The translations under genes were made by a program, and so were the position numbers. From the sequence record MT884006.2: DNA of 64,000 bases; one strand, given 5' to 3'. Origin of the DNA: Escherichia phage vb_EcoM_bov9_1. How positions within the stretch are numbered: position 1 is the stretch's first letter; each line of letters begins with the position of its first letter. This document shows positions 7,798-63,534 of this stretch, piece by piece. The notes below the pieces were generated by a model. It was not told the DNA's origin. It saw only the letters and a program-made list of their open reading frames with translations, and ran no database searches.

Positions 7798-8494
<697 letters not shown>

Positions 8495-9906: not shown

Positions 9907-10731
9907 TTAAATATTTGACCAGACTTTGTTTGCAGAGAAACGTTTTCCTTTTGAAACGAACTGCTGAAGTGGCATCAACACAACGTTCGCCCAGTCTTTC
10001 GGGGCGATTTCAACAAGGCTACCCATAATATTACCAGGTATATATGCCTTAATCATTTGGTCTGCACCCCTAAATCCTTTCACTTGACTCCAATCAATTT
10101 TTAATTTCGTTTTATTAGTAATAATAGGTGTATTTGCATATTGCTTTAAAAGCTCTTCTAGAAATTGCTGACGAGCTTTAGGTGGAATATAGTGCAAGTT
10201 TAATCCGTACATTAAATTATGCTTACCTAAACCAAGGTAAATTATCAAAGGAAATTTATCCCAGTAAGGAAGAGTTTCCTTGTGTTTAGCATCATAAGCA
10301 AAAGCATATATTCGTCCCGGCTGCGGGCGAACAACTTTATGTCCTTTTACTTGCTTAATAGTTTCAGCAAACCACTTTCTGGTTTTATTATTAATTGCTG
10401 CGCCTTCATTACGAATTTTATCACGCAATGTTTGTCTGAATGAATTTATCATAAGCAGTTGTCTTTCTTGCTTATTGAGTTTATTCATTGGTTTTGATTC
10501 AAGCTTTTGAATCTTTTCAGCCGTTTTAATTCCTGAAGCATATTTTGACATTGCCGAAGTAAACGTAGAGTATTTGATTCCTCTTTCTTCAGCAAATTGC
10601 TTTCCTGTCATTCCTTTTGCTTTGGCCTTTTTGTATTCAAGACCTATCTGAATCCATTTCTTTTCGTTTAATGATTGCTTAACCTTTGGAACTTGGGGAG
10701 TGCTTTCATTAATTATTTGAAAAATAGCCAT
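9907..10731 (-). CDS. 2: gp2 DNA end protector
   Basis: 274 aa basic protein in conserved position between genes 3 and 4. Confidence 0.8.
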
Positions 10732-11183
10732 TATGCCCCCTTAAAGCCAAGAGCTCGTAATCCATCTTCTGTTAGAATTCTAAATTTTATTCCACGCTTT
10801 TCAGCTAAAGATTGTGCTGCTTTCCATTTGTCAGTATTAACAGAATATGTATAAATTTCATTCATAAATCTTTTCTTCGCTGCAGTTGTTAGATGTGCTG
10901 GTTTAACTGGTGGTTGTGTTTCTTTTTTAGGTTTTATTTCAATAAAAAATTCTTGTCCAGAAGAATCTTTCATCCAAATATCCATGAAGTATCTACGTTT
11001 TTTCCCTTCTGCATTACAAAAATAAGGAATTACTGCTGTTTCACTACCCCATGCAATAATTTCTGGATTTTTATCTAACCATTCAAAAAAGAATTTTTCC
11101 CAATTTGATCTATACGTAATTTTTTTAGGGTCACCTCTATACTTTGATATATTTTTAGGAACCCATTTTCCAGAATATGCCAT
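10731..11183 (-). CDS. 4: gp4 head completion protein
   Basis: 150 aa ORF divergent from gene 53, with its own late promoter. Confidence 0.8.
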
Positions 11184-55004: not shown

Positions 55005-55034
55005 ACTATAACACAACATAAGGAACTTGTAAAC
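55005..55034 (-). promoter_or_regulatory. T4-type early promoter (GTTTAC -35, 18 bp spacer, TGTTATAGT extended -10)
   Basis: Minus-strand reading GTTTAC-N18-TGTTATAGT about 30 nt upstream of ATG at 54973; -35 overlaps the alt paralogue stop codon. Confidence 0.55.
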
Positions 55035-57091
55035 TACATTTTGAACTTTTTAGACATTCCGTTGATGTTAACCAAAGAAGCTAAGATTTGAGAAACTTCG
55101 TTTTCCTCTTCTTTTGATTCTTCTACAAGGAATTGATTAAATCCAGCCATTGGACGAACTTCACCAGTTTCCATCAGATGGTCGCCATCATATACTGATT
55201 CTTCTAATTGTTCAGAAGGAGGAACGATTGTACCTTCGATTAGATACTTGTTATAAGCAGTTTCTTTCATCATGTACGTACTTACTTTATTAATCTTCAG
55301 TAAAATTCCACGCGGCAAAATAACTTCAGCTTCGGATGGAAATCCTGATAAATGACCTGGAACGATAACTTTAACTCGTTCAGCTCCTTTAATTACCATA
55401 CCTACATTAGTTTCAGCGTCTTCATTCGCATATGTAGAATGACTACCCATATGCATTAAATCTTCAGCATCAACTGAACCTTCTCCTTCACCAGAAAATA
55501 CTGCTCCGGAATCATCTAAGGCCATATAATTTTTACCATATTCACCGAAGATATTTGGCTTGAGTGAAGTAGATACAAAGTTCTTGAAATAGAACATTTT
55601 ATTTTCTATATTATGACGTAAAGTTTTAAAGGTAACTTCTTGCCCACGATAAAGAGTAGTTCCTGGAGGAAGAACTGAACCTTTAGAAAATGCAGAATCC
55701 AGCGTCTCAATATGTTTAATAGCTCGTTCCATATATTCTTCACGGGTAGAATCAGGTTTACCTAGAAGGAACGAGTTCATTTCAACATATGAATCTGCGC
55801 AATAATCTTCAATTACATCAGACTCAGCCTGAGTTAATCCTTTTGGAGTTACTTCAGTGCTTGCATATTCATATGCCTGAGCAGCAGATTCATCAATTAA
55901 TTTATAAATTCCATTCATTACAAATTGAATAATAGCTGTCTTTTCATCTGGTGTAGCTTTAGAACCTTTAACTAAATCATTGACAATTTTCTTAATAACA
56001 TCAAAGCTATTAGAAATATTAATGTCAGCAAGATCGCTTAAAATTTTATCAGTTTTATAATCAAAGAATTCTTTATTCTTTAAATATTCTTGAGAACCTT
56101 GATATGTTATATCGCTCTGCAGCTTGATAGATGGATCGCGTAAACGTGCATGGGCCAATGCAATATGATTTCGGAAGCTTTCGAGTTCATAATCACTAGA
56201 TTTAAAACGAGAAGCACTTCTCATACCACCGATAGCTCCTTTGCTAAAGTTTGAACCAACCTGAATAACGCCAGAGTTCATTGGTCCTTCTGCTTTATAT
56301 ACCGGAACTTTAGATTCAAACTCTTGATATTTCTTAGCAGCGAAGCTATCACCCTGAAGTGAAGCATCAACAGTAGAATATTGAGCTTGTGCTGCTAATC
56401 GACGACTAATTTTAGTTTTCTGAATAACAGCTTGATCCGTGCGCTTATCATTTTCTAAAGCAATAGAAGCAGCAACAGCAACAGCTTTAGGAACAGCATT
56501 ACCTGTTTTAACGTCTACATAAACATCACCAACCTTTGATTCAACTTTTGTGAATAACTCGGTTGAAATAGGAGGTACACCTGGAATGTCTTCTAAATTG
56601 GCATTTTTACGGTAAACCATAATATATGCGTACTTTTTATCATAATCCCAGATTTCCTTTAAAAGAACATATCGACCTGCTCCTTTAGTACGTACTAAAC
56701 GGTCAGCAATAACTTGCATTTGCCGAGCAGCGCCATTTGTTTTACTTTTTAGTACGCGGAATAAGCATGCATCAATTTTATACTGTTTCATTGTTTGAAG
56801 AGCAGTATCAAAAACAGCATTAATGACGCCAATTGGATTTCCACCCAAGTTTTTAAGCTTAACTAATGATAGTTTCTCATTAACACCTATCATTACGATA
56901 TGCATCATTTTGTCGCCTGGCTTAACGTTTTTATTCGTATCACCGCCAGAGGTGTATGTACAAAATCTAAATCCAGGAAGCACGCTTTCTTCACCTGCTT
57001 GAATAGCAAAAATTTGAGGTATTTTATGCTTAGGATTTAAGTTAACAACCGGCGCCGAAGCGCCGTCAAATAATTCTGTAATAAGTTCCAT
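55034..57091 (-). CDS. Alt-family ADP-ribosyltransferase, paralogue 2
   Basis: 685 aa; N-terminal about 230 aa highly similar to the adjacent alt (MELITELFD...), diverged middle region, C-terminal ART motifs LYR, FVSTSL and SEAEVILPRG. Confidence 0.8.
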   Translation of the reverse strand: MELITELFDGASAPVVNLNPKHKIPQIFAIQAGEESVLPGFRFCTYTSGGDTNKNVKPGDKMMHIVMIGVNEKLSLVKLKNLGGNPIGVINAVFDTALQTMKQYKIDACLFRVLKSKTNGAARQMQVIADRLVRTKGAGRYVLLKEIWDYDKKYAYIMVYRKNANLEDIPGVPPISTELFTKVESKVGDVYVDVKTGNAVPKAVAVAASIALENDKRTDQAVIQKTKISRRLAAQAQYSTVDASLQGDSFAAKKYQEFESKVPVYKAEGPMNSGVIQVGSNFSKGAIGGMRSASRFKSSDYELESFRNHIALAHARLRDPSIKLQSDITYQGSQEYLKNKEFFDYKTDKILSDLADINISNSFDVIKKIVNDLVKGSKATPDEKTAIIQFVMNGIYKLIDESAAQAYEYASTEVTPKGLTQAESDVIEDYCADSYVEMNSFLLGKPDSTREEYMERAIKHIETLDSAFSKGSVLPPGTTLYRGQEVTFKTLRHNIENKMFYFKNFVSTSLKPNIFGEYGKNYMALDDSGAVFSGEGEGSVDAEDLMHMGSHSTYANEDAETNVGMVIKGAERVKVIVPGHLSGFPSEAEVILPRGILLKINKVSTYMMKETAYNKYLIEGTIVPPSEQLEESVYDGDHLMETGEVRPMAGFNQFLVEESKEEENEVSQILASLVNINGMSKKFKM

Positions 57092-57094
57092 GAT

Positions 57095-59188
57095 TTATCC
57101 TTGAACGAACTTGTAAGGCATGTTTGTAATATCTATGCAAGACGCAATAATTCCAAGAGATGATTCTACTTTCTGTTTAATATTTGATGAAACAAATGAT
57201 GCAAAGTCAACTCTGTCTTCTATTTCAATATCACCTGTCATTGCAGCCAATTCACCAGTTTCCATTAAATGGTCTCCATCATAGATTACCGATTCGGTGA
57301 GCTCTTCCGTGGTCATAACTTCAGCTTGAATGAGTTTTGTATTATTAGATGTTGTTCCGTCATTATTAGAAGCATCGGTTATTTTATTAACTTTGACCAT
57401 CAATCCACGCGGTAGAATAACTTCAGCTTCTGTTGCTATTCCGAGACTTCCTGGATATACAACATTAACTTTATGAGCTCCATCAATTGCCCATCCTATT
57501 TGAACTTTAACATATTCAGGATTTTCTTTATACGCTCTTATTTCGTTTGGATTAATAGTTATTCCTTCTTCATTTTTATCAACTGTTAATTCATTGCGAG
57601 CTTCTGGTTCTAAAAGACCAATACCAGCATGTGTGATTCCAAAACGTCCAAAAATGATAGGAGTTAAAGAAGTAGATACAAAATTTCTGAAGTAGAACAC
57701 TTTATTTTTAACTAACGCTTCATATATAGGAGCAGTCATACTTTGAGCACGATAAACTGTAATGCCTTCTGGTATACGGTCACCATTTTCAAAAGCTGAA
57801 TCTAAGTTATTTATAGCAGATTCAATTTCTTTTTCACTCATTACATCGTATCGTTCTGGATTGTAACGACCTAAAAGAAGATTATTGATGTCAGTATATC
57901 CTGATCCACAATACTCTCTAATGCCGCGCTTTTGCGATGGAGTATATTTAGAACCATCACGTGCAATGGTAATATCAATCATTGGACCTGCACCAATTCC
58001 AGAAAAGCTATAAATCATTCGTTTGAGGAATTTAGTTTTTGCTGCGTTCCAGGAATTTTTAGTTATTTCTTCCCAGACTTCATCTGGCTGCCCTTTACGA
58101 GTTTTATTATGTTTATCAAGCCAATTATCTTTATATTCTTCAAATAATTGATTAACAGCTGCTGCGTATTTCTCTAAACATTTTATTGAAGTAGTTGGTT
58201 CATTTTTAATCGCATTAAGAATTACATCTTTAATTTTTTCAGAAACTTCATTAACCTCACTTTTTAAAAAGAATTTATAGTCATAGTGAAGTTCATCTGC
58301 GGTTCCTTCGGCAATAATTTTTGCTGCCTTAGTTTTAGAAGCTAATGAATTAATTCCAAGCTTCATTTCTTCTGCTTCGGGAATTAAAGGAGCTGTAGCA
58401 GGTTTATTGAAATTAGCTGCGGTAGATTCATATTTCTGGAATAATTCGCTTTCAAATCTAGAAGATTCTAATGACTGACTTTGTGCAATTGCTCTACGGG
58501 AAATTTTAACTTTAACGATAACAGCTTGGTCAGAGCGTTTATCATTTTCTTGTGCAATAGATGCTGCAATTGCCTCATTTTTAGTTACTTGAGCTCCAGT
58601 ATCTTTATTGATATAAACATCGCCGACTTTCGATTCAACCTTAGTAAAGAGCTCGGTACTAATTTCAGGAACTCCTGGAATGTCTTCTAGTGATACATTT
58701 TTGCGATGTATAAGAATATATGCGTACTTTTTATCATAATCCCAGAGTTCCTTAAGAAGGACGTATCTGCCACCTGAACGACTACGGATAAGTCTATCAG
58801 CAATAACTTGAATTTGTCGAGCTTGACCAGCAGTTTTAGACTTAAGAATACGAAGCATACAGGCATCAATTTTATACTGACGCATCGTCTGCATTGCAAC
58901 AGTAAAAACTGAATTGATGTAATTAATTGGGCTTGGACCGAGACCTTTTAATTTAGCAATTGAACCTTTAGCAGTTAATGTAAAAGGAACAATATGCATC
59001 ATTTTATCGCCCATTTTTAAATCGCGATTAGTATCACCTCCAGATGTATAGGTACATAAACGAAAGCCTGGTTGTTCAATTGCATCATCAACATGAACTG
59101 AAAAAATTTGTGGTATTTTCTTCTTTGGATTTAAGTTTGTAATCGGAAGAGTAGTATCTTCGTCAAATAATTCTGTAATAAGTTCCAT
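57095..59188 (-). CDS. alt: Alt ADP-ribosyltransferase (packaged, injected)
   Basis: 697 aa matching T4 Alt at N- and C-termini; ART motifs VYR, FVSTSL and EAEVILPRG; late promoter upstream. Confidence 0.9.
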   Translation of the reverse strand: MELITELFDEDTTLPITNLNPKKKIPQIFSVHVDDAIEQPGFRLCTYTSGGDTNRDLKMGDKMMHIVPFTLTAKGSIAKLKGLGPSPINYINSVFTVAMQTMRQYKIDACMLRILKSKTAGQARQIQVIADRLIRSRSGGRYVLLKELWDYDKKYAYILIHRKNVSLEDIPGVPEISTELFTKVESKVGDVYINKDTGAQVTKNEAIAASIAQENDKRSDQAVIVKVKISRRAIAQSQSLESSRFESELFQKYESTAANFNKPATAPLIPEAEEMKLGINSLASKTKAAKIIAEGTADELHYDYKFFLKSEVNEVSEKIKDVILNAIKNEPTTSIKCLEKYAAAVNQLFEEYKDNWLDKHNKTRKGQPDEVWEEITKNSWNAAKTKFLKRMIYSFSGIGAGPMIDITIARDGSKYTPSQKRGIREYCGSGYTDINNLLLGRYNPERYDVMSEKEIESAINNLDSAFENGDRIPEGITVYRAQSMTAPIYEALVKNKVFYFRNFVSTSLTPIIFGRFGITHAGIGLLEPEARNELTVDKNEEGITINPNEIRAYKENPEYVKVQIGWAIDGAHKVNVVYPGSLGIATEAEVILPRGLMVKVNKITDASNNDGTTSNNTKLIQAEVMTTEELTESVIYDGDHLMETGELAAMTGDIEIEDRVDFASFVSSNIKQKVESSLGIIASCIDITNMPYKFVQG

Positions 59189-59244: not shown

Positions 59245-59430
59245 TTAATAGAGAGCTAAAAGAGTACGATATACTTCAAACTTTGGACCTTTTTCATATG
59301 GATCAAATCTTTCCGTGAATTCATCATATGCTAGTTTATCTGGGAATTCAAGAATAACCTGCGATACCGCAGTGGAAACATCTCCACCTTCTTTTTGAGC
59401 CACGACAATTGTTTCTAAGTAAGCTTTCAT
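59245..59430 (-). CDS. Hypothetical protein
   Basis: 61 aa ORF overlapping the gene 30 stop. Confidence 0.45.
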   Translation of the reverse strand: MKAYLETIVVAQKEGGDVSTAVSQVILEFPDKLAYDEFTERFDPYEKGPKFEVYRTLLALY

Positions 59431-60890
59431 AAACCAGTTACCTCATGAAAATCGCCAAATACATCTTCGAACGTATTAGCTTTAGTTTTATCTTCACGTA
59501 AACGAATTGCAATTGGAAGAAATAGCTTAACGTAATCAGTACGTCCATCTAATTTTACCCAGCCGTTGCATTCGCACTCTAGAATTTTTCCAATATAATA
59601 ATTTTGGTTTTCCATAATGCGAGTACGGTCAAGTTCATGCGATTTTACGCCGGCTTTATCTTTTAAGCCTGAACCAGCATTTACTTTAATTTTTCCACAC
59701 TCTGATTCAAGAATGAAACCACCTGCTTTAGTAGGGTCTTTACGGTGAGGATAAATTCCTACAATTTTTAAATCAACATCAATTACTTCTTTAAATTTAT
59801 AAAGATTTTTTGAACGAGCATTTTCCCATAATCCATCGATATTTTTGAGAATAATACCTTCAAGACCTTGGTCAATATACTTTTTGTAAATTACCTTAGC
59901 TTCATCTAGGTTATTTACTACTTGGTTTTCAATTAAAATTACTTTATCATAGCCTGATGTCATTTGTTCTAGTTTAGAAAAACGTACATCATATTTTAAA
60001 CGAAACGCCGGAAGACCGTATATTTCTACCAACGGAACATAATCCCAGACCTGAAACTTCATGCATTGAGCTTCTTTTTCTGAAATAGTTCCCTTTAAAG
60101 ATTTATTAGCGATTCCATTAGAAGTAGTACGTGATTCAGCTACTTCGGCGAATTCTTTAGCTTTACTAATTTCAGGATAAGCATCAAAAAGAAAATCTAG
60201 GCCTTCTGGCTCCTTTTCAACTTGCTCATGGTATACCAATTCGCCATCAATTAACACACCTTCTGGATGAATCTGGCGAGCTTCTGCAGTCATTTTGATT
60301 AACTCTTCTTTGAGAAGATCTAATCCTAGATATTCATTACCAGCTCGTGATAAAAGACGAACATCATCTAATTCATCACCTCTGACTTCAGCAAAGCACC
60401 GAGCTCCATCAGCTTTTAATTGGGCAAAGGCTGGAAATTTAATATTCTTGCTAATGCCTTTTTCATCATAAGAACTTGCCAGCATTTGAGGTTGTTCAGG
60501 AATTAAACCTGGCCAAACTTTGTTTGCAATAGATACTGATGCACCGCATTCAAGGTCTCGCATCATCACCCGACGCAAAACTTCAACATCATCTTTTTTA
60601 CCGTCAGTAATATATCCAGTTAATTCCTCAATTGCCGCATTTCCAGTCAATTTCCGAGTAGCTAATGTGAATTCAATGAAGTCAAGCATATCGGTAAGAG
60701 TCAACATTCCAAAACTCTGGGTAGCAATACCAGGTTTAGGCCATTTCTTGATATAATACTGTAACCCACGAGAATAAGTCAGACGATATACTCGTTTGAG
60801 CAATTCATTATCTTTATTCTTTTCAAGAATTGCTTGCTTTTGCTTAGTTGAACCAATAGATGCTATTTCATTCAGAATTTTAAGAATCAT
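59427..60890 (-). CDS. 30: gp30 ATP-dependent DNA ligase
   Basis: 487 aa starting MILKILNEIASIGSTKQKQAILEKNKDNELLKRVYRLTYSRGLQYYIKKWPKPG; adenylation motif KADGAR. Confidence 0.97.
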   Translation of the reverse strand: MILKILNEIASIGSTKQKQAILEKNKDNELLKRVYRLTYSRGLQYYIKKWPKPGIATQSFGMLTLTDMLDFIEFTLATRKLTGNAAIEELTGYITDGKKDDVEVLRRVMMRDLECGASVSIANKVWPGLIPEQPQMLASSYDEKGISKNIKFPAFAQLKADGARCFAEVRGDELDDVRLLSRAGNEYLGLDLLKEELIKMTAEARQIHPEGVLIDGELVYHEQVEKEPEGLDFLFDAYPEISKAKEFAEVAESRTTSNGIANKSLKGTISEKEAQCMKFQVWDYVPLVEIYGLPAFRLKYDVRFSKLEQMTSGYDKVILIENQVVNNLDEAKVIYKKYIDQGLEGIILKNIDGLWENARSKNLYKFKEVIDVDLKIVGIYPHRKDPTKAGGFILESECGKIKVNAGSGLKDKAGVKSHELDRTRIMENQNYYIGKILECECNGWVKLDGRTDYVKLFLPIAIRLREDKTKANTFEDVFGDFHEVTGL

Positions 60891-61156
60891 TGTTCATCCT
60901 TTAGAGTTTGGTTTACAGCTCTATTATAAATCAATTCATCATTAAGCTCAGTCAAAGACCTGTGGTACGTGGTTCTAACTTTATTTCCTTGCATCCAGTG
61001 CTTGACGTAAATGAAACCTTGCTCTACACATTTTTTAAAAATTCGTTCGTCTTTTTGAGCTCGGAATTCTGGATTGCATCTAAAAAATTGATTTACGTGA
61101 CCGTAATCACGTGTAGTATTACCTTCATTTTCATAAATAGTGTAAACGACAAACAT
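60887..61156 (-). CDS. Hypothetical protein (30.1 position)
   Basis: 89 aa ORF immediately upstream of gene 30. Confidence 0.5.
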   Translation of the reverse strand: MFVVYTIYENEGNTTRDYGHVNQFFRCNPEFRAQKDERIFKKCVEQGFIYVKHWMQGNKVRTTYHRSLTELNDELIYNRAVNQTLKDEQ

Positions 61157-61992
61157 TAGAATGCTCCTTGGAAAATATTATCACCACTAGTAGGTCTATT
61201 ATACAAATACTCTATGCCACCGGGTTTAATATAGTTCCATGTCTGAAACGGATGCGTCTGATATGGATGATATAGATTATAAGGATTAAATCCAGGAGTT
61301 CTCCAGGTAGTGTTCCAAGGAAAAGAATCATTTTTAATCATCTTTTCAATTACATCTTTTATAGCTTTTTCACTATCAAAACTTTCTTTATTTTCATTCG
61401 ATGGAAAAAGCTTATTCTCTACATCATTCCATGTATAAACTCGCTGTGCAGTTTTTGGAATACTGTCACGCTCCCCTCGAGCCATCCAATAAACAGGAAC
61501 ATTTAATATTTCACTCGCATGATCGCAGTGGTGAGCGAGATCGTCAATATAACAAATTACGTTATATTTCTCTTTTGCCTTTTTGAACAACTCTTCTTTT
61601 GAAGAATCATGACCACACATCAATACTTCTGAGAAGGCACCAGGAAAAAGAGCATTCAAATTAAATTGACGATTCAGCAGAGCGTCAATAGAATCACCCA
61701 GTGCTGTAACAGCTACAAAATTATAATCTTCTTTTAATTTGTTAATTACACACAGGGCATCTTTATATGGAGACAAATAGCGAATAAAATCTGAACGATT
61801 ATACTTTTCGATTAATTTAACACCAAGTTCTTCATCGCAATTAAAGAGCTTACCAGGAGAAATAAATTTTTCGTCCTGAATCATTTTTAAAATATGTTCC
61901 AACGGAAGATTATATTTTTGGGCAAAATAAGGAAGGCCCGATTGCCAGCTTAAACACACCCCGTCAATATCAGTCAAAATAGTAGGCTTCAT
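61156..61992 (-). CDS. HAD-superfamily hydrolase-like protein (30.2 position)
   Basis: 278 aa; N-terminal motif I ILTDIDGV (hhhDxDGx), later VAVTAL and CYIDDLAHH resembling HAD motifs II-IV, plus a C-terminal extension of about 100 aa. Confidence 0.55.
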   Translation of the reverse strand: MKPTILTDIDGVCLSWQSGLPYFAQKYNLPLEHILKMIQDEKFISPGKLFNCDEELGVKLIEKYNRSDFIRYLSPYKDALCVINKLKEDYNFVAVTALGDSIDALLNRQFNLNALFPGAFSEVLMCGHDSSKEELFKKAKEKYNVICYIDDLAHHCDHASEILNVPVYWMARGERDSIPKTAQRVYTWNDVENKLFPSNENKESFDSEKAIKDVIEKMIKNDSFPWNTTWRTPGFNPYNLYHPYQTHPFQTWNYIKPGGIEYLYNRPTSGDNIFQGAF

Positions 61993-62453
61993 AGAGAGTC
62001 TCTTAATAGGTTTAACACATCAATAAATTCAGCTTCGGTTAGTATTGTATCATCTTTTGTTAGACCACTAGCCATGCTATGCTTCAAAATTTTTCCTTTA
62101 GAGGCTTGTAAGGCATCACGAAACCCCTTGTTTTGAATCGCTGCTTCAAAATATGCATTTGTATACAACTCTTTCCATGCTGCAGAGTATCTTGAAAAGG
62201 GAATTCCAAGCCAGAAAAGCGTCCCACGGTCCGCAGCTCTTGCATAAGCTCTTCCACTTTGCTGGGCGGCCAAGCCGGAGAGCCCAAATATACGTTTTTG
62301 TTGTTCAACATTTTTCACCTTGCATCCTTGGAGGAATCCTTCAAGACCTCCGAATTGAATACCATCCATGACGAAAGGCCATTGGGCGAAATTACTTAAT
62401 GCACACGATGGCCATCTAAAATTGCTTCTAATCTCTAACTCAGACATTTTCAA
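61989..62453 (-). CDS. NADAR / YbiA (DUF1768)-like protein (30.3 position)
   Basis: 154 aa; ALSNFAQWPF...DGIQF...E.FLQ..K pattern parallels the E. coli YbiA GDFSNFAAWPI...DGKTW...EHYFQAQK core. Confidence 0.6.
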   Translation of the reverse strand: MKMSELEIRSNFRWPSCALSNFAQWPFVMDGIQFGGLEGFLQGCKVKNVEQQKRIFGLSGLAAQQSGRAYARAADRGTLFWLGIPFSRYSAAWKELYTNAYFEAAIQNKGFRDALQASKGKILKHSMASGLTKDDTILTEAEFIDVLNLLRDSL

Positions 62454-62646
62454 TACTTATAATTTCAACATCAGCCCAATGACCATAGCAAGGAAGACGA
62501 AATTCAACTGGCCAGTTAGGGTCCTTTTCTAATATAATAGACTCAACTTGTGGTTCTTCATGTTCATCAGTATATGGATTTTTATCTGTTACTTTATATG
62601 TGACCTTAATGTACTGAATTCCAAAAATCTTATTAATTATATTCAT
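62440..62646 (-). CDS. Hypothetical protein
   Basis: 68 aa ORF in the translationally coupled early gene run. Confidence 0.45.
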   Translation of the reverse strand: MNIINKIFGIQYIKVTYKVTDKNPYTDEHEEPQVESIILEKDPNWPVEFRLPCYGHWADVEIISIENV

Positions 62647-62840
62647 ACTAATTCCTTTAATCCGTAAATAGGAGACAATTCATCACCCATACGAAGGTCT
62701 TCATTTCCATCTACCCAGGAAACAATATAAGCCTCTTTTATTTGAACACCACTCCATTTAAATGGAGGTAGAACCTTAGAAATTAATCCAGGTATACCAA
62801 CTCCCTTTAATTCAACAGTTTGACCTAAAAAGAATTTCAT
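62643..62840 (-). CDS. Hypothetical protein
   Basis: 65 aa ORF in the translationally coupled early gene run. Confidence 0.45.
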   Translation of the reverse strand: MKFFLGQTVELKGVGIPGLISKVLPPFKWSGVQIKEAYIVSWVDGNEDLRMGDELSPIYGLKELV

Positions 62841-63127
62841 TAGAACCTCATCTGAAAACCATGCGATTTAACATTACCGCCGCCAATATCAGAAATATTA
62901 ATTTCACGCGCAATTGAAGGGTCAATGTCAATTTCACGATTAAGTTTAGCGATAGCTAAAGTATCACGCCCATTTACTGTACGGAATTCTAAAGGACAAA
63001 CCACATCAACGTAATTTTTAATCGATTCACTGGTAAGCTGCAAATGAGCAGGAAGGTCTTTAGGTGCCTTTGAGAAAACCACTTCACAAAAATTTTTGCG
63101 GGTGTCAAAATAAGTAGTCATAAACAT
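62840..63127 (-). CDS. Hypothetical protein
   Basis: 95 aa ORF. Confidence 0.45.
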   Translation of the reverse strand: MFMTTYFDTRKNFCEVVFSKAPKDLPAHLQLTSESIKNYVDVVCPLEFRTVNGRDTLAIAKLNREIDIDPSIAREINISDIGGGNVKSHGFQMRF

Positions 63128-63144
63128 AATATTTTCCTCAGTAA

Positions 63145-63158
63145 GGGGCCGAAGCCCC
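63145..63158 (-). repeat. GGGGC-UUCG-GCCCC hairpin, copy 3 of 3
   Basis: Identical 14-mer, 11 nt after the stop of the 63169..63534 gene. Confidence 0.6.
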
Positions 63159-63168
63159 TCATTTTATT

Positions 63169-63534
63169 TTAAATATCAAATTCGTTAAGAACTACATCAA
63201 AGATTGCTTCAAGATGCTCAGGTTTAGCTCTGTTACTCAGAATATGACGAATCCAAGTTTTAACCAAAAGCTTGCGATTATCACCATTCCAGCAAGGATG
63301 AGTCCCTAAATCGCGTTGACGAAAATCATCATCTAAAGCGATTTTAAAATTTGAACCTTCCATTGTGATTGAAACCGTGATGCCATTTTCAAATCGCATA
63401 TAAACGTAGTTAGGAGTCATATACTGTTCAATTTCGCATACTGATCCATTTTGATGTTTCCAAAGGCAAATAGTATCAATAGAACCTGCAATACCATTAG
63501 AAACATATTTACGTTCAAAGTTGATGTAGTTCAT
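63169..63534 (-). CDS. Hypothetical protein
   Basis: 121 aa ORF with an early promoter upstream. Confidence 0.5.
   Translation of the reverse strand: MNYINFERKYVSNGIAGSIDTICLWKHQNGSVCEIEQYMTPNYVYMRFENGITVSITMEGSNFKIALDDDFRQRDLGTHPCWNGDNRKLLVKTWIRHILSNRAKPEHLEAIFDVVLNEFDI

Follow-up and report, generated by a model that had tools for sequence, protein, structure and literature searches.

The resistance of T-even phages to DarTG1 has been mapped by the LeRoux group to gene 30.3, whose T4 product, gp30.3, was renamed AdfN in 2024 (PMC11257639). T4 AdfN is both necessary and sufficient against DarTG1; the purified protein strips ADP-ribose from DNA, and the substitutions E36A and K43A abolish its function (PMC11257639). 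In the DarTG1-sensitive phage RB69 the last helix is lost through a frameshift; without its final 15 residues the allele is inactive, and plasmid-expressed AdfN alone fully restores the plating of RB69 on DarTG1 (PMC11257639). In vitro, T4 gp30.3 removes ADP-ribose from guanosine, not thymidine, in DNA, and work from the Schuller group has named a clade of "gp30.3 NADARs" whose mark is a histidine in the last strand (PMC11125620). The T4 protein is reported to function where phage DNA is hydroxymethylated, and it fails to relieve the toxicity of DarT1 on host DNA (PMC11257639; PMC11125620). An independent transposon screen of T4 agrees with these assignments, the 30.3 insertions being lost on DarTG1 with a log2 fold change of -7.25 (10.1101/2025.11.20.689424). 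The DarG1-type NADARs and YbiA (PF08719; PDB 8bat, 8bau and 2b3w) are the nearest relatives of AdfN by fold, and have guanine-ADP-ribose glycohydrolase chemistry in common with it (PMC11125620).

For gene 30.2, which adjoins 30.3, our literature search returned no papers on the product gp30.2 and none that treat 30.1, 30.2 and 30.3 together. Here we describe both genes in the window, by which we mean the whole 64,000-nucleotide stretch analysed from Escherichia phage vb_EcoM_bov9_1 (record MT884006.2). We propose, with considerable confidence, that they are two consecutive early genes acting independently of each other, adfN encoding an anti-DarTG1 NADAR and 30.2 a predicted HAD phosphatase, and that they do not form a two-gene module.

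Gene order and genome context

The window comes from a T4-like Tequatrovirus (a T4-like myovirus). Escherichia phage vb_EcoM_bov10K1 shares positions 60800-63200 at 100% identity, and 730 phage records were matched in the nucleotide comparison. Genes 30.4, 30.3, 30.2, 30.1, 30 (DNA ligase), alt.1 and alt follow each other without gaps on the minus strand, in the T4 order. The two ORFs that an earlier note had placed here, of 154 and 278 aa, are indeed present on that strand, at 61989-62453 and 61156-61992. The genes of the run that concern us are as follows.

62440-62646, minus strand: gene 30.4, 68 aa, upstream of adfN (phrog_2042, E 4e-35; T4 synteny; 8 nt shared with the adfN start)
61989-62447, minus strand: adfN, orthologue of T4 gene 30.3, 152 aa (PF08010, 95% identity to T4 gp30.3, AlphaFold2 model and Foldseek)
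62084-62311, minus strand: 30.3', an ORF of 75 aa within adfN, in a different frame (from the ORF list; an internal translation product in the T4 annotation)
61156-61992, minus strand: orthologue of T4 gene 30.2, 278 aa, predicted HAD phosphatase with a C-terminal tail (97% identity to T4 gp30.2)
60887-61156, minus strand: gene 30.1 (DUF3045), downstream of 30.2 (PF11243, E 2.9e-63; 1-nt overlap with the 30.2 stop)
59427-60890, minus strand: gene 30, ATP-dependent DNA ligase (T4 synteny; the most constant neighbour of 30.2)

Stop and start codons overlap at all of the junctions 30.4/30.3, 30.3/30.2 (as ATGA), 30.2/30.1 and 30.1/30. When 59-64 kb was scanned for promoters and terminators, the 23 candidates did not exceed the shuffled expectation of 18.9 +/- 4.5, and nothing in the scan speaks for the 30.3/30.2 pair forming a transcription unit of its own.

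The genome context that the earlier note had listed was found in full, including the DNA ligase adjacent to this run. Two full-length Alt-type ADP-ribosyltransferases are encoded at 55034-57091 and 57095-59188, with 70% and 41% identity to T4 Alt, and a Nudix protein (NudE) at 163-618; the "2H phosphodiesterase" at 7798-8253 is Acb1 (gene 57B), a known anti-CBASS protein.

The 30.3 product is AdfN

The 154-aa ORF begins mechanically at a TTG at 62453. Its true coding sequence is most likely 61989-62447, read from an ATG at 62447. This start is favoured by the sequence on three grounds: it makes the product colinear with its T4 counterpart, it overlaps the 30.4 stop by 8 nt as in T4, and it alone fits the published residue numbers (E36, K43). 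The TTG was rejected as a real start on the same colinearity and numbering. The parts of the gene to which the following analysis refers are these.

62448-62453, minus strand: TTG and AAA, extra codons of the mechanical ORF, probably untranslated (the 459-nt T4 coding sequence begins at the equivalent ATG)
62388-62399, minus strand: LSNF motif, AdfN residues 17-20 (invariant in 46 homologues; aligned with FSNF of YbiA)
62319-62342, minus strand: predicted catalytic segment E36-G-F-L-Q40-G-C-K43 (codons read directly; conserved in homologues)
62079-62081, minus strand: H123, the last-strand His by which the phage (gp30.3) clade of NADARs is recognised (invariant; just past model strand 120-122)

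Of the motifs quoted for this ORF in the earlier note, LSNF-x-x-WP-F is present, within ALSNFAQWPF, and DG...E..FQ..K differs in one letter, where the sequence has LQ: the segment reads DGIQFGGLEGFLQGCK, that is DG-x6-E-x2-LQ-x2-K.

The protein matches PF08010 (Phage_30_3) over model positions 1-138 of 138 with an E-value of 3.6e-67 (224.9 bits against a cut-off of 36). No direct match to PF08719 (NADAR) was obtained in the Pfam search, PF08010 being the only family at E<=1. A distant homologue (P0194) carries both domains. Since PF08719 is not matched directly, the relation of AdfN to that family is visible only through profile and fold. In keeping with this, a search of PDB sequences with AdfN alone gave nothing at E<=10, and YbiA was reached only with the family profile: the profile of 46 homologues matches E. 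coli YbiA (2b3w) at E 0.0057 across the LSNF...E..Q..K region, and lines up E36 and K43 with the E..Q..K of YbiA. All 46 homologues share L17, S18, N19, F20, E36, Q40 and H123, and at least 90% of them share K43; the window protein retains E36, K43 and H123.

The AlphaFold2 model of AdfN has a mean pLDDT of 93.6. Foldseek gave confident PDB matches only to YbiA (E 5.9e-5, TM-score 0.68), to an ADP-ribose-bound NADAR of P. nicotianae (Phytophthora) and to the DarG1-type NADAR of Geobacter lovleyi, every further match having a probability of 0.06 or less. AdfN shares with the DarG1-type NADARs and YbiA the fold (Foldseek probability 0.99-1.0) and the LSNF and E-x3-Q-x2-K motifs at only 15-18% identity. 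It differs from them in its last-strand catalytic residue, which is His in AdfN and Asp or Glu in the others, and, unlike them, in having neither the fold extension nor a linked DarT.

The likeness to T4 AdfN (PMC11257639; PF08010) is far closer. The window protein and T4 gp30.3 are 95% identical over 152 residues, gap-free through residue 152, with the same length, the same C-terminus, the same E36/K43/H123 and the same neighbours, 30.4 and 30.2; eight substitutions, none at conserved positions, are the only difference. The protein is full length, with a terminal helix at 138-151 in the model and no frameshift of the RB69 type. Judged by its sequence, the window protein is AdfN, a protein of NADAR fold, an identity on which fold, catalytic residues and literature agree. 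Most GenBank records of this phage group label the gene "hypothetical protein"; the label should be adfN (anti-DarTG1 DNA ADP-ribosylglycohydrolase).

According to the mechanism that follows from the T4 work, the host DarT1 toxin would ADP-ribosylate guanines in replicating phage DNA. AdfN, as a small N-glycosidase of NADAR fold, would hydrolyse the bond between ribose and guanine, releasing ADP-ribose and restoring a replicable template, and a phage with AdfN would escape DarTG1. AdfN would act as an "orphan antitoxin" that need not bind the toxin. This mechanism is experimental for the T4 protein, and we infer it here from the 95% identity, the full length and the retention of E36, K43 and H123; a change of specificity through the 5% of residues that differ from T4 AdfN is conceivable. 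Given the identity of adfN, the phage is predicted to be DarTG1-resistant. Reversal of DarT guanine ADP-ribosylation, which the earlier note had raised, is an experimentally established activity of T4 AdfN, a 95% identical protein (PMC11257639; PMC11125620), so the anti-DarT role of the NADAR protein is already known from published work and is not new. That note's description of the substrate as unknown no longer holds for this protein, the substrate published for T4 AdfN being ADP-ribosyl-guanine in DNA.

It has also been suggested, from context and before experiments, that phage NADARs have as their main substrates soluble derivatives of ADP-ribose, for instance immune signals (PMC9503650), or, like YbiA, intermediates of the riboflavin pathway, and not DNA adducts. 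YbiA is the closest solved fold to AdfN, which fits such a substrate, but the biochemistry and genetics of the T4 orthologue concern ADP-ribosylated DNA and DarTG1. This reading of the window protein is very improbable, and a soluble ADP-ribose or riboflavin substrate is largely refuted as the main role of AdfN; a second activity besides that on DNA may exist.

Gene 30.2 encodes a predicted HAD-superfamily phosphatase

The product of 30.2 falls into two parts.

61408-61992, minus strand: predicted HAD catalytic domain (residues 1-195), whose C1 cap at about 16-72 is all-helical
61159-61407, minus strand: variable C-terminal tail, residues 196-278, largely predicted disordered, with a GGIEYLYNRPT motif (from pLDDT and homologue lengths)

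The protein starts MKPTILTDIDGV and contains TDIDGV, so that the DxDGV-type HAD motif I reported in the earlier note occupies residues 8-12. Over 278 residues the protein is 97% identical to T4 gp30.2, and it matches phrog_420, a PHROG of unknown function, at E 4.3e-93. In an alignment of 36 homologues from many T4-like genera, D8, D10, G11 and K132 are invariant, and T96, D150 and D151 are kept in at least 90%.

The AlphaFold2 model has pLDDT above 90 over residues 1-195 and below 50 over residues 225-278. It shows a Rossmann-like HAD core fold with the motifs at the expected strand ends: motif I (D8-I-D10-G-V12) follows strand 4-7, T96 of motif II ends strand 91-96, K132 of motif III precedes helix 133-142, and D150-D151 of motif IV end the modelled strand 145-150. 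A five-helix insertion of 57 residues (16-72) occupies the C1-cap position in the model. In established HAD classification the second Asp of motif I marks phosphotransferases and separates phosphatases from dehalogenases, and its presence in gp30.2 favours a phosphatase. Taken with the conservation of motifs I-IV among homologues, the model supports a HAD-superfamily phosphatase.

Curated models were less informative. None of the HAD HMMs PF00702, PF13419 and PF06941 matched gp30.2 at E<=0.1, and NCBIfam gave no HAD match either. The HAD identity that the earlier note had suggested therefore stands on the family alignment and the fold, and a Pfam or NCBIfam match is missing; the Pfam search it had called for identified the 30.3 product, through the PF08010 match given above, and gave no hit for 30.2. 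Among the 36 relatives, sub-threshold Pfam matches were found to PF00702 in nine and to NT5C in five. Sub-threshold Pfam and NCBIfam matches of gp30.2 to thiamine pyrophosphokinase were rejected as spurious, arising by chance.

As to the substrate, a single-sequence PDB search with gp30.2 had a best E-value of only about 1. The family profile matched mouse cdN (2jao), nucleophile aligned, at E 0.017, and a further three cdN chains lay just above E 1; 5'(3')-deoxyribonucleotidases are the only recurring specific match at the sequence level. By TM-score and rmsd, cdN and mdN are among the best Foldseek matches, although the fold does not discriminate them from other C1-capped HADs. Depositors have labelled some of the homologues "phosphatase", "HAD" or "5'-3' deoxyribonucleotidase". 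Compared with cdN, mdN and the bacterial NT5C-like proteins (PF06941; PDB 2jao, 2i7d, 1q92 and 3bwv), gp30.2 has 14-20% identity and no match to PF06941 at threshold, and unlike cdN and mdN it has an extra disordered tail of 80 residues and an invariant block of its own, LNRxFNLNALFPGAF. We suggest that gp30.2 is most likely nucleotidase-like and acts on a small phosphomonoester. It would be a Mg-dependent phosphomonoesterase working through an aspartyl-phosphate under a helical C1 cap, most like the 5'(3')-(deoxy)nucleotidases, with a small phosphorylated metabolite, for example a (deoxy)nucleoside monophosphate, as its likeliest class of substrate.

The surroundings of 30.2 raise two further possibilities. 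Of 78 IMG/VR loci that carry a 30.2 homologue, 72 have DNA ligase within 6 kb of it, and in a distant contig (L080) the homologue is again near the ligase in another gene order. With a weak match of gp30.2 to phrog_415 ("polynucleotide kinase", E 0.0045), this linkage would suit a 3'-phosphatase that heals nucleic-acid ends, like the phosphatase domain of T4 Pnk, and readies nicks for the adjacent ligase. In the model, however, the 57-residue helical cap covers the active site. By the established classification of HADs (Burroughs et al. 2006) a C1 cap goes with small-molecule substrates, and DNA phosphatases of the Pnk type have no cap. T4-like phages, moreover, already encode Pnk, and their gene order is broadly conserved, which makes linkage to a core gene weak evidence. 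We therefore consider an end-healing role unlikely.

The second possibility gives the tail a part. Many homologues of gp30.2 are only about 200 aa long and tail-less, and the tail motif (GGIEYLYNRPT here) recurs in 15 of 100 cluster representatives. An exhaustive search of representatives returned 1481 relatives, mostly stand-alone, about 200 aa long and unannotated, and Pfam found no informative partner domains on the fusions and long members. Speculatively, gp30.2 might be a phosphatase associated with the ligase or replisome, recruited through the conserved peptide GxGIEYLxxQPT in its disordered tail and clearing a specific phosphorylated by-product at sites of phage replication or repair; in one version this by-product would stem from the removal of ADP-ribose, in defence settings that no screen has yet covered. 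We give such recruitment little credence, and prefer for gp30.2 the nucleotidase-like enzyme acting on a small metabolite.

Genes 30.3 and 30.2 are neighbours without support for a shared pathway

The earlier note had read the two genes as a pair for counter-defence or ADP-ribose salvage, with the HAD enzyme as a phosphatase for a nucleotide-derived product. In such a pair the NADAR protein would free ADP-ribose, or else a related nucleotide, and its neighbour would dephosphorylate a product, for example ribose-5-phosphate or AMP after Nudix cleavage. The genes do adjoin, the stop of one overlapping the start of the next as ATGA, every close T-even relative has them side by side, NudE and the two Alt ADP-ribosyltransferases are encoded in the same genome, and both genes are near-universal in Straboviridae (1439 and 1509 phage records). 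Overlaps are, however, the rule along the whole run from 30.4 through 30.3, 30.2 and 30.1 to 30, and the ATGA junction is thus not specific to this pair. Beyond the close T-even relatives, gp30.3/NADAR lies within 6 kb of the 30.2 homologue in only 37 of the full set of 78 IMG/VR loci, against 72 for the ligase, and is absent from the neighbourhood in the remaining 41, while in Enterobacter phage PG7 genes 30.3 and 30.2 are about 58 kb apart.

The genetic evidence points the same way. AdfN alone, supplied from a plasmid, suffices for RB69 to plate on DarTG1 (PMC11257639). In the transposon screen data, T4 30.2 insertions were unchanged on DarTG1 (log2 fold change -0.12, p 0.61), under the same selection by which 30.3 insertions were lost. 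Gene 30.2 is also non-essential in T4, insertions having been recovered at 72 of its 72 TA sites. A functional module of 30.3 and 30.2 is not supported by these observations, and the stepwise release and dephosphorylation of ADP-ribose products by the pair is quite improbable; a shared role may still exist under conditions not yet screened.

Under our preferred reading of two independently acting genes, gp30.2 would be dispensable in the laboratory and stand outside the anti-DarT1 function, and its adjacency to adfN would follow from a preserved order of genes within a compact early transcription unit. Beyond annotation the locus has little significance. The predicted enzyme gp30.2 is carried by about 1400 sequenced Straboviridae genomes with every catalytic residue conserved, and was phenotype-less in the screens examined here. 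Insertions in gene 30.4 of T4 showed a moderate drop on DarTG1 in the transposon screen data, which is probably a polar effect on 30.3.

adfN and its neighbours

The stop codon of gene 30.4 overlaps the start of adfN by 8 nt, and gene 30.4, like gene 30.3, falls in the T4 transposon screen on DarTG1 (log2FC -1.79, adjusted p 0.014; 10.1101/2025.11.20.689424). The likeliest explanation of the drop in 30.4 insertions is a polar effect on adfN.

62440-62646, minus strand: gene 30.4, its stop overlapping the adfN start by 8 nt

Nested within adfN in a second frame is a 75-aa ORF (62084-62311, minus strand), the counterpart of 30.3', for which the T4 annotation gives internal translation as the origin. 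Certain T4-like phages carry only N-terminal pieces of gp30.3, joined to other small T4 early-gene families; these fusions are the proteins P0114, P0115, P0116, P0144 and P0199, with the partner families PF11097, PF06919, PF06019 and PF26911. Because such fragments are fused to other early-gene families, recurrent deletions in the 30.3-30.8 region are suggested for some T4-like phages, by which AdfN would be inactivated.

The T4 NADAR construct in the methods of PMC11125620 is given as "gp30.3; residues 1-208", whereas gp30.3 comprises 152 aa both in T4 and in the window; the construct may therefore derive from another phage or carry extra sequence.

The adjoining phosphatase gp30.2 ends in a variable tail, largely predicted to be disordered, in which a short stretch, G-[TG]-G-I-E-Y-L-x-[RNQ]-Q-P-T, is conserved some 15-20 residues before the C-terminus. 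This motif, which may be a docking peptide, recurs across several phage genera, being present in 15 of 100 cluster representatives.

61159-61407, minus strand: gp30.2 residues 196-278, variable tail, largely predicted disordered

Other genes in the window

The two Alt ADP-ribosyltransferases claimed in the earlier note are both present as full-length paralogues in tandem, whereas T4 has a single alt and the remnants alt.-1 and alt.-2.

55034-57091, minus strand: full-length Alt-type ADP-ribosyltransferase paralogue
57095-59188, minus strand: full-length Alt-type ADP-ribosyltransferase paralogue, ligase-proximal

The ligase-proximal copy is a mosaic relative to T4 Alt (70% identity overall), being nearly identical in residues 1-245 and the last ~110 and strongly divergent in the central and catalytic part; the other copy shows 41% identity to T4 Alt.

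The "2H phosphodiesterase" of the same note proved to be the anti-CBASS protein Acb1, the product of an already known counter-defence gene (T4 gene 57B). A 150-aa ORF matches a TnsA-like endonuclease N-terminal domain; its position presumably corresponds to that of gene 4 (head completion protein) in the T4 gene order.

7798-8253, minus strand: Acb1, anti-CBASS (PF23474, E 2.6e-60)
10731-11183, minus strand: 150-aa ORF, TnsA-like endonuclease N-terminal domain (PF08722, E 2.8e-21)
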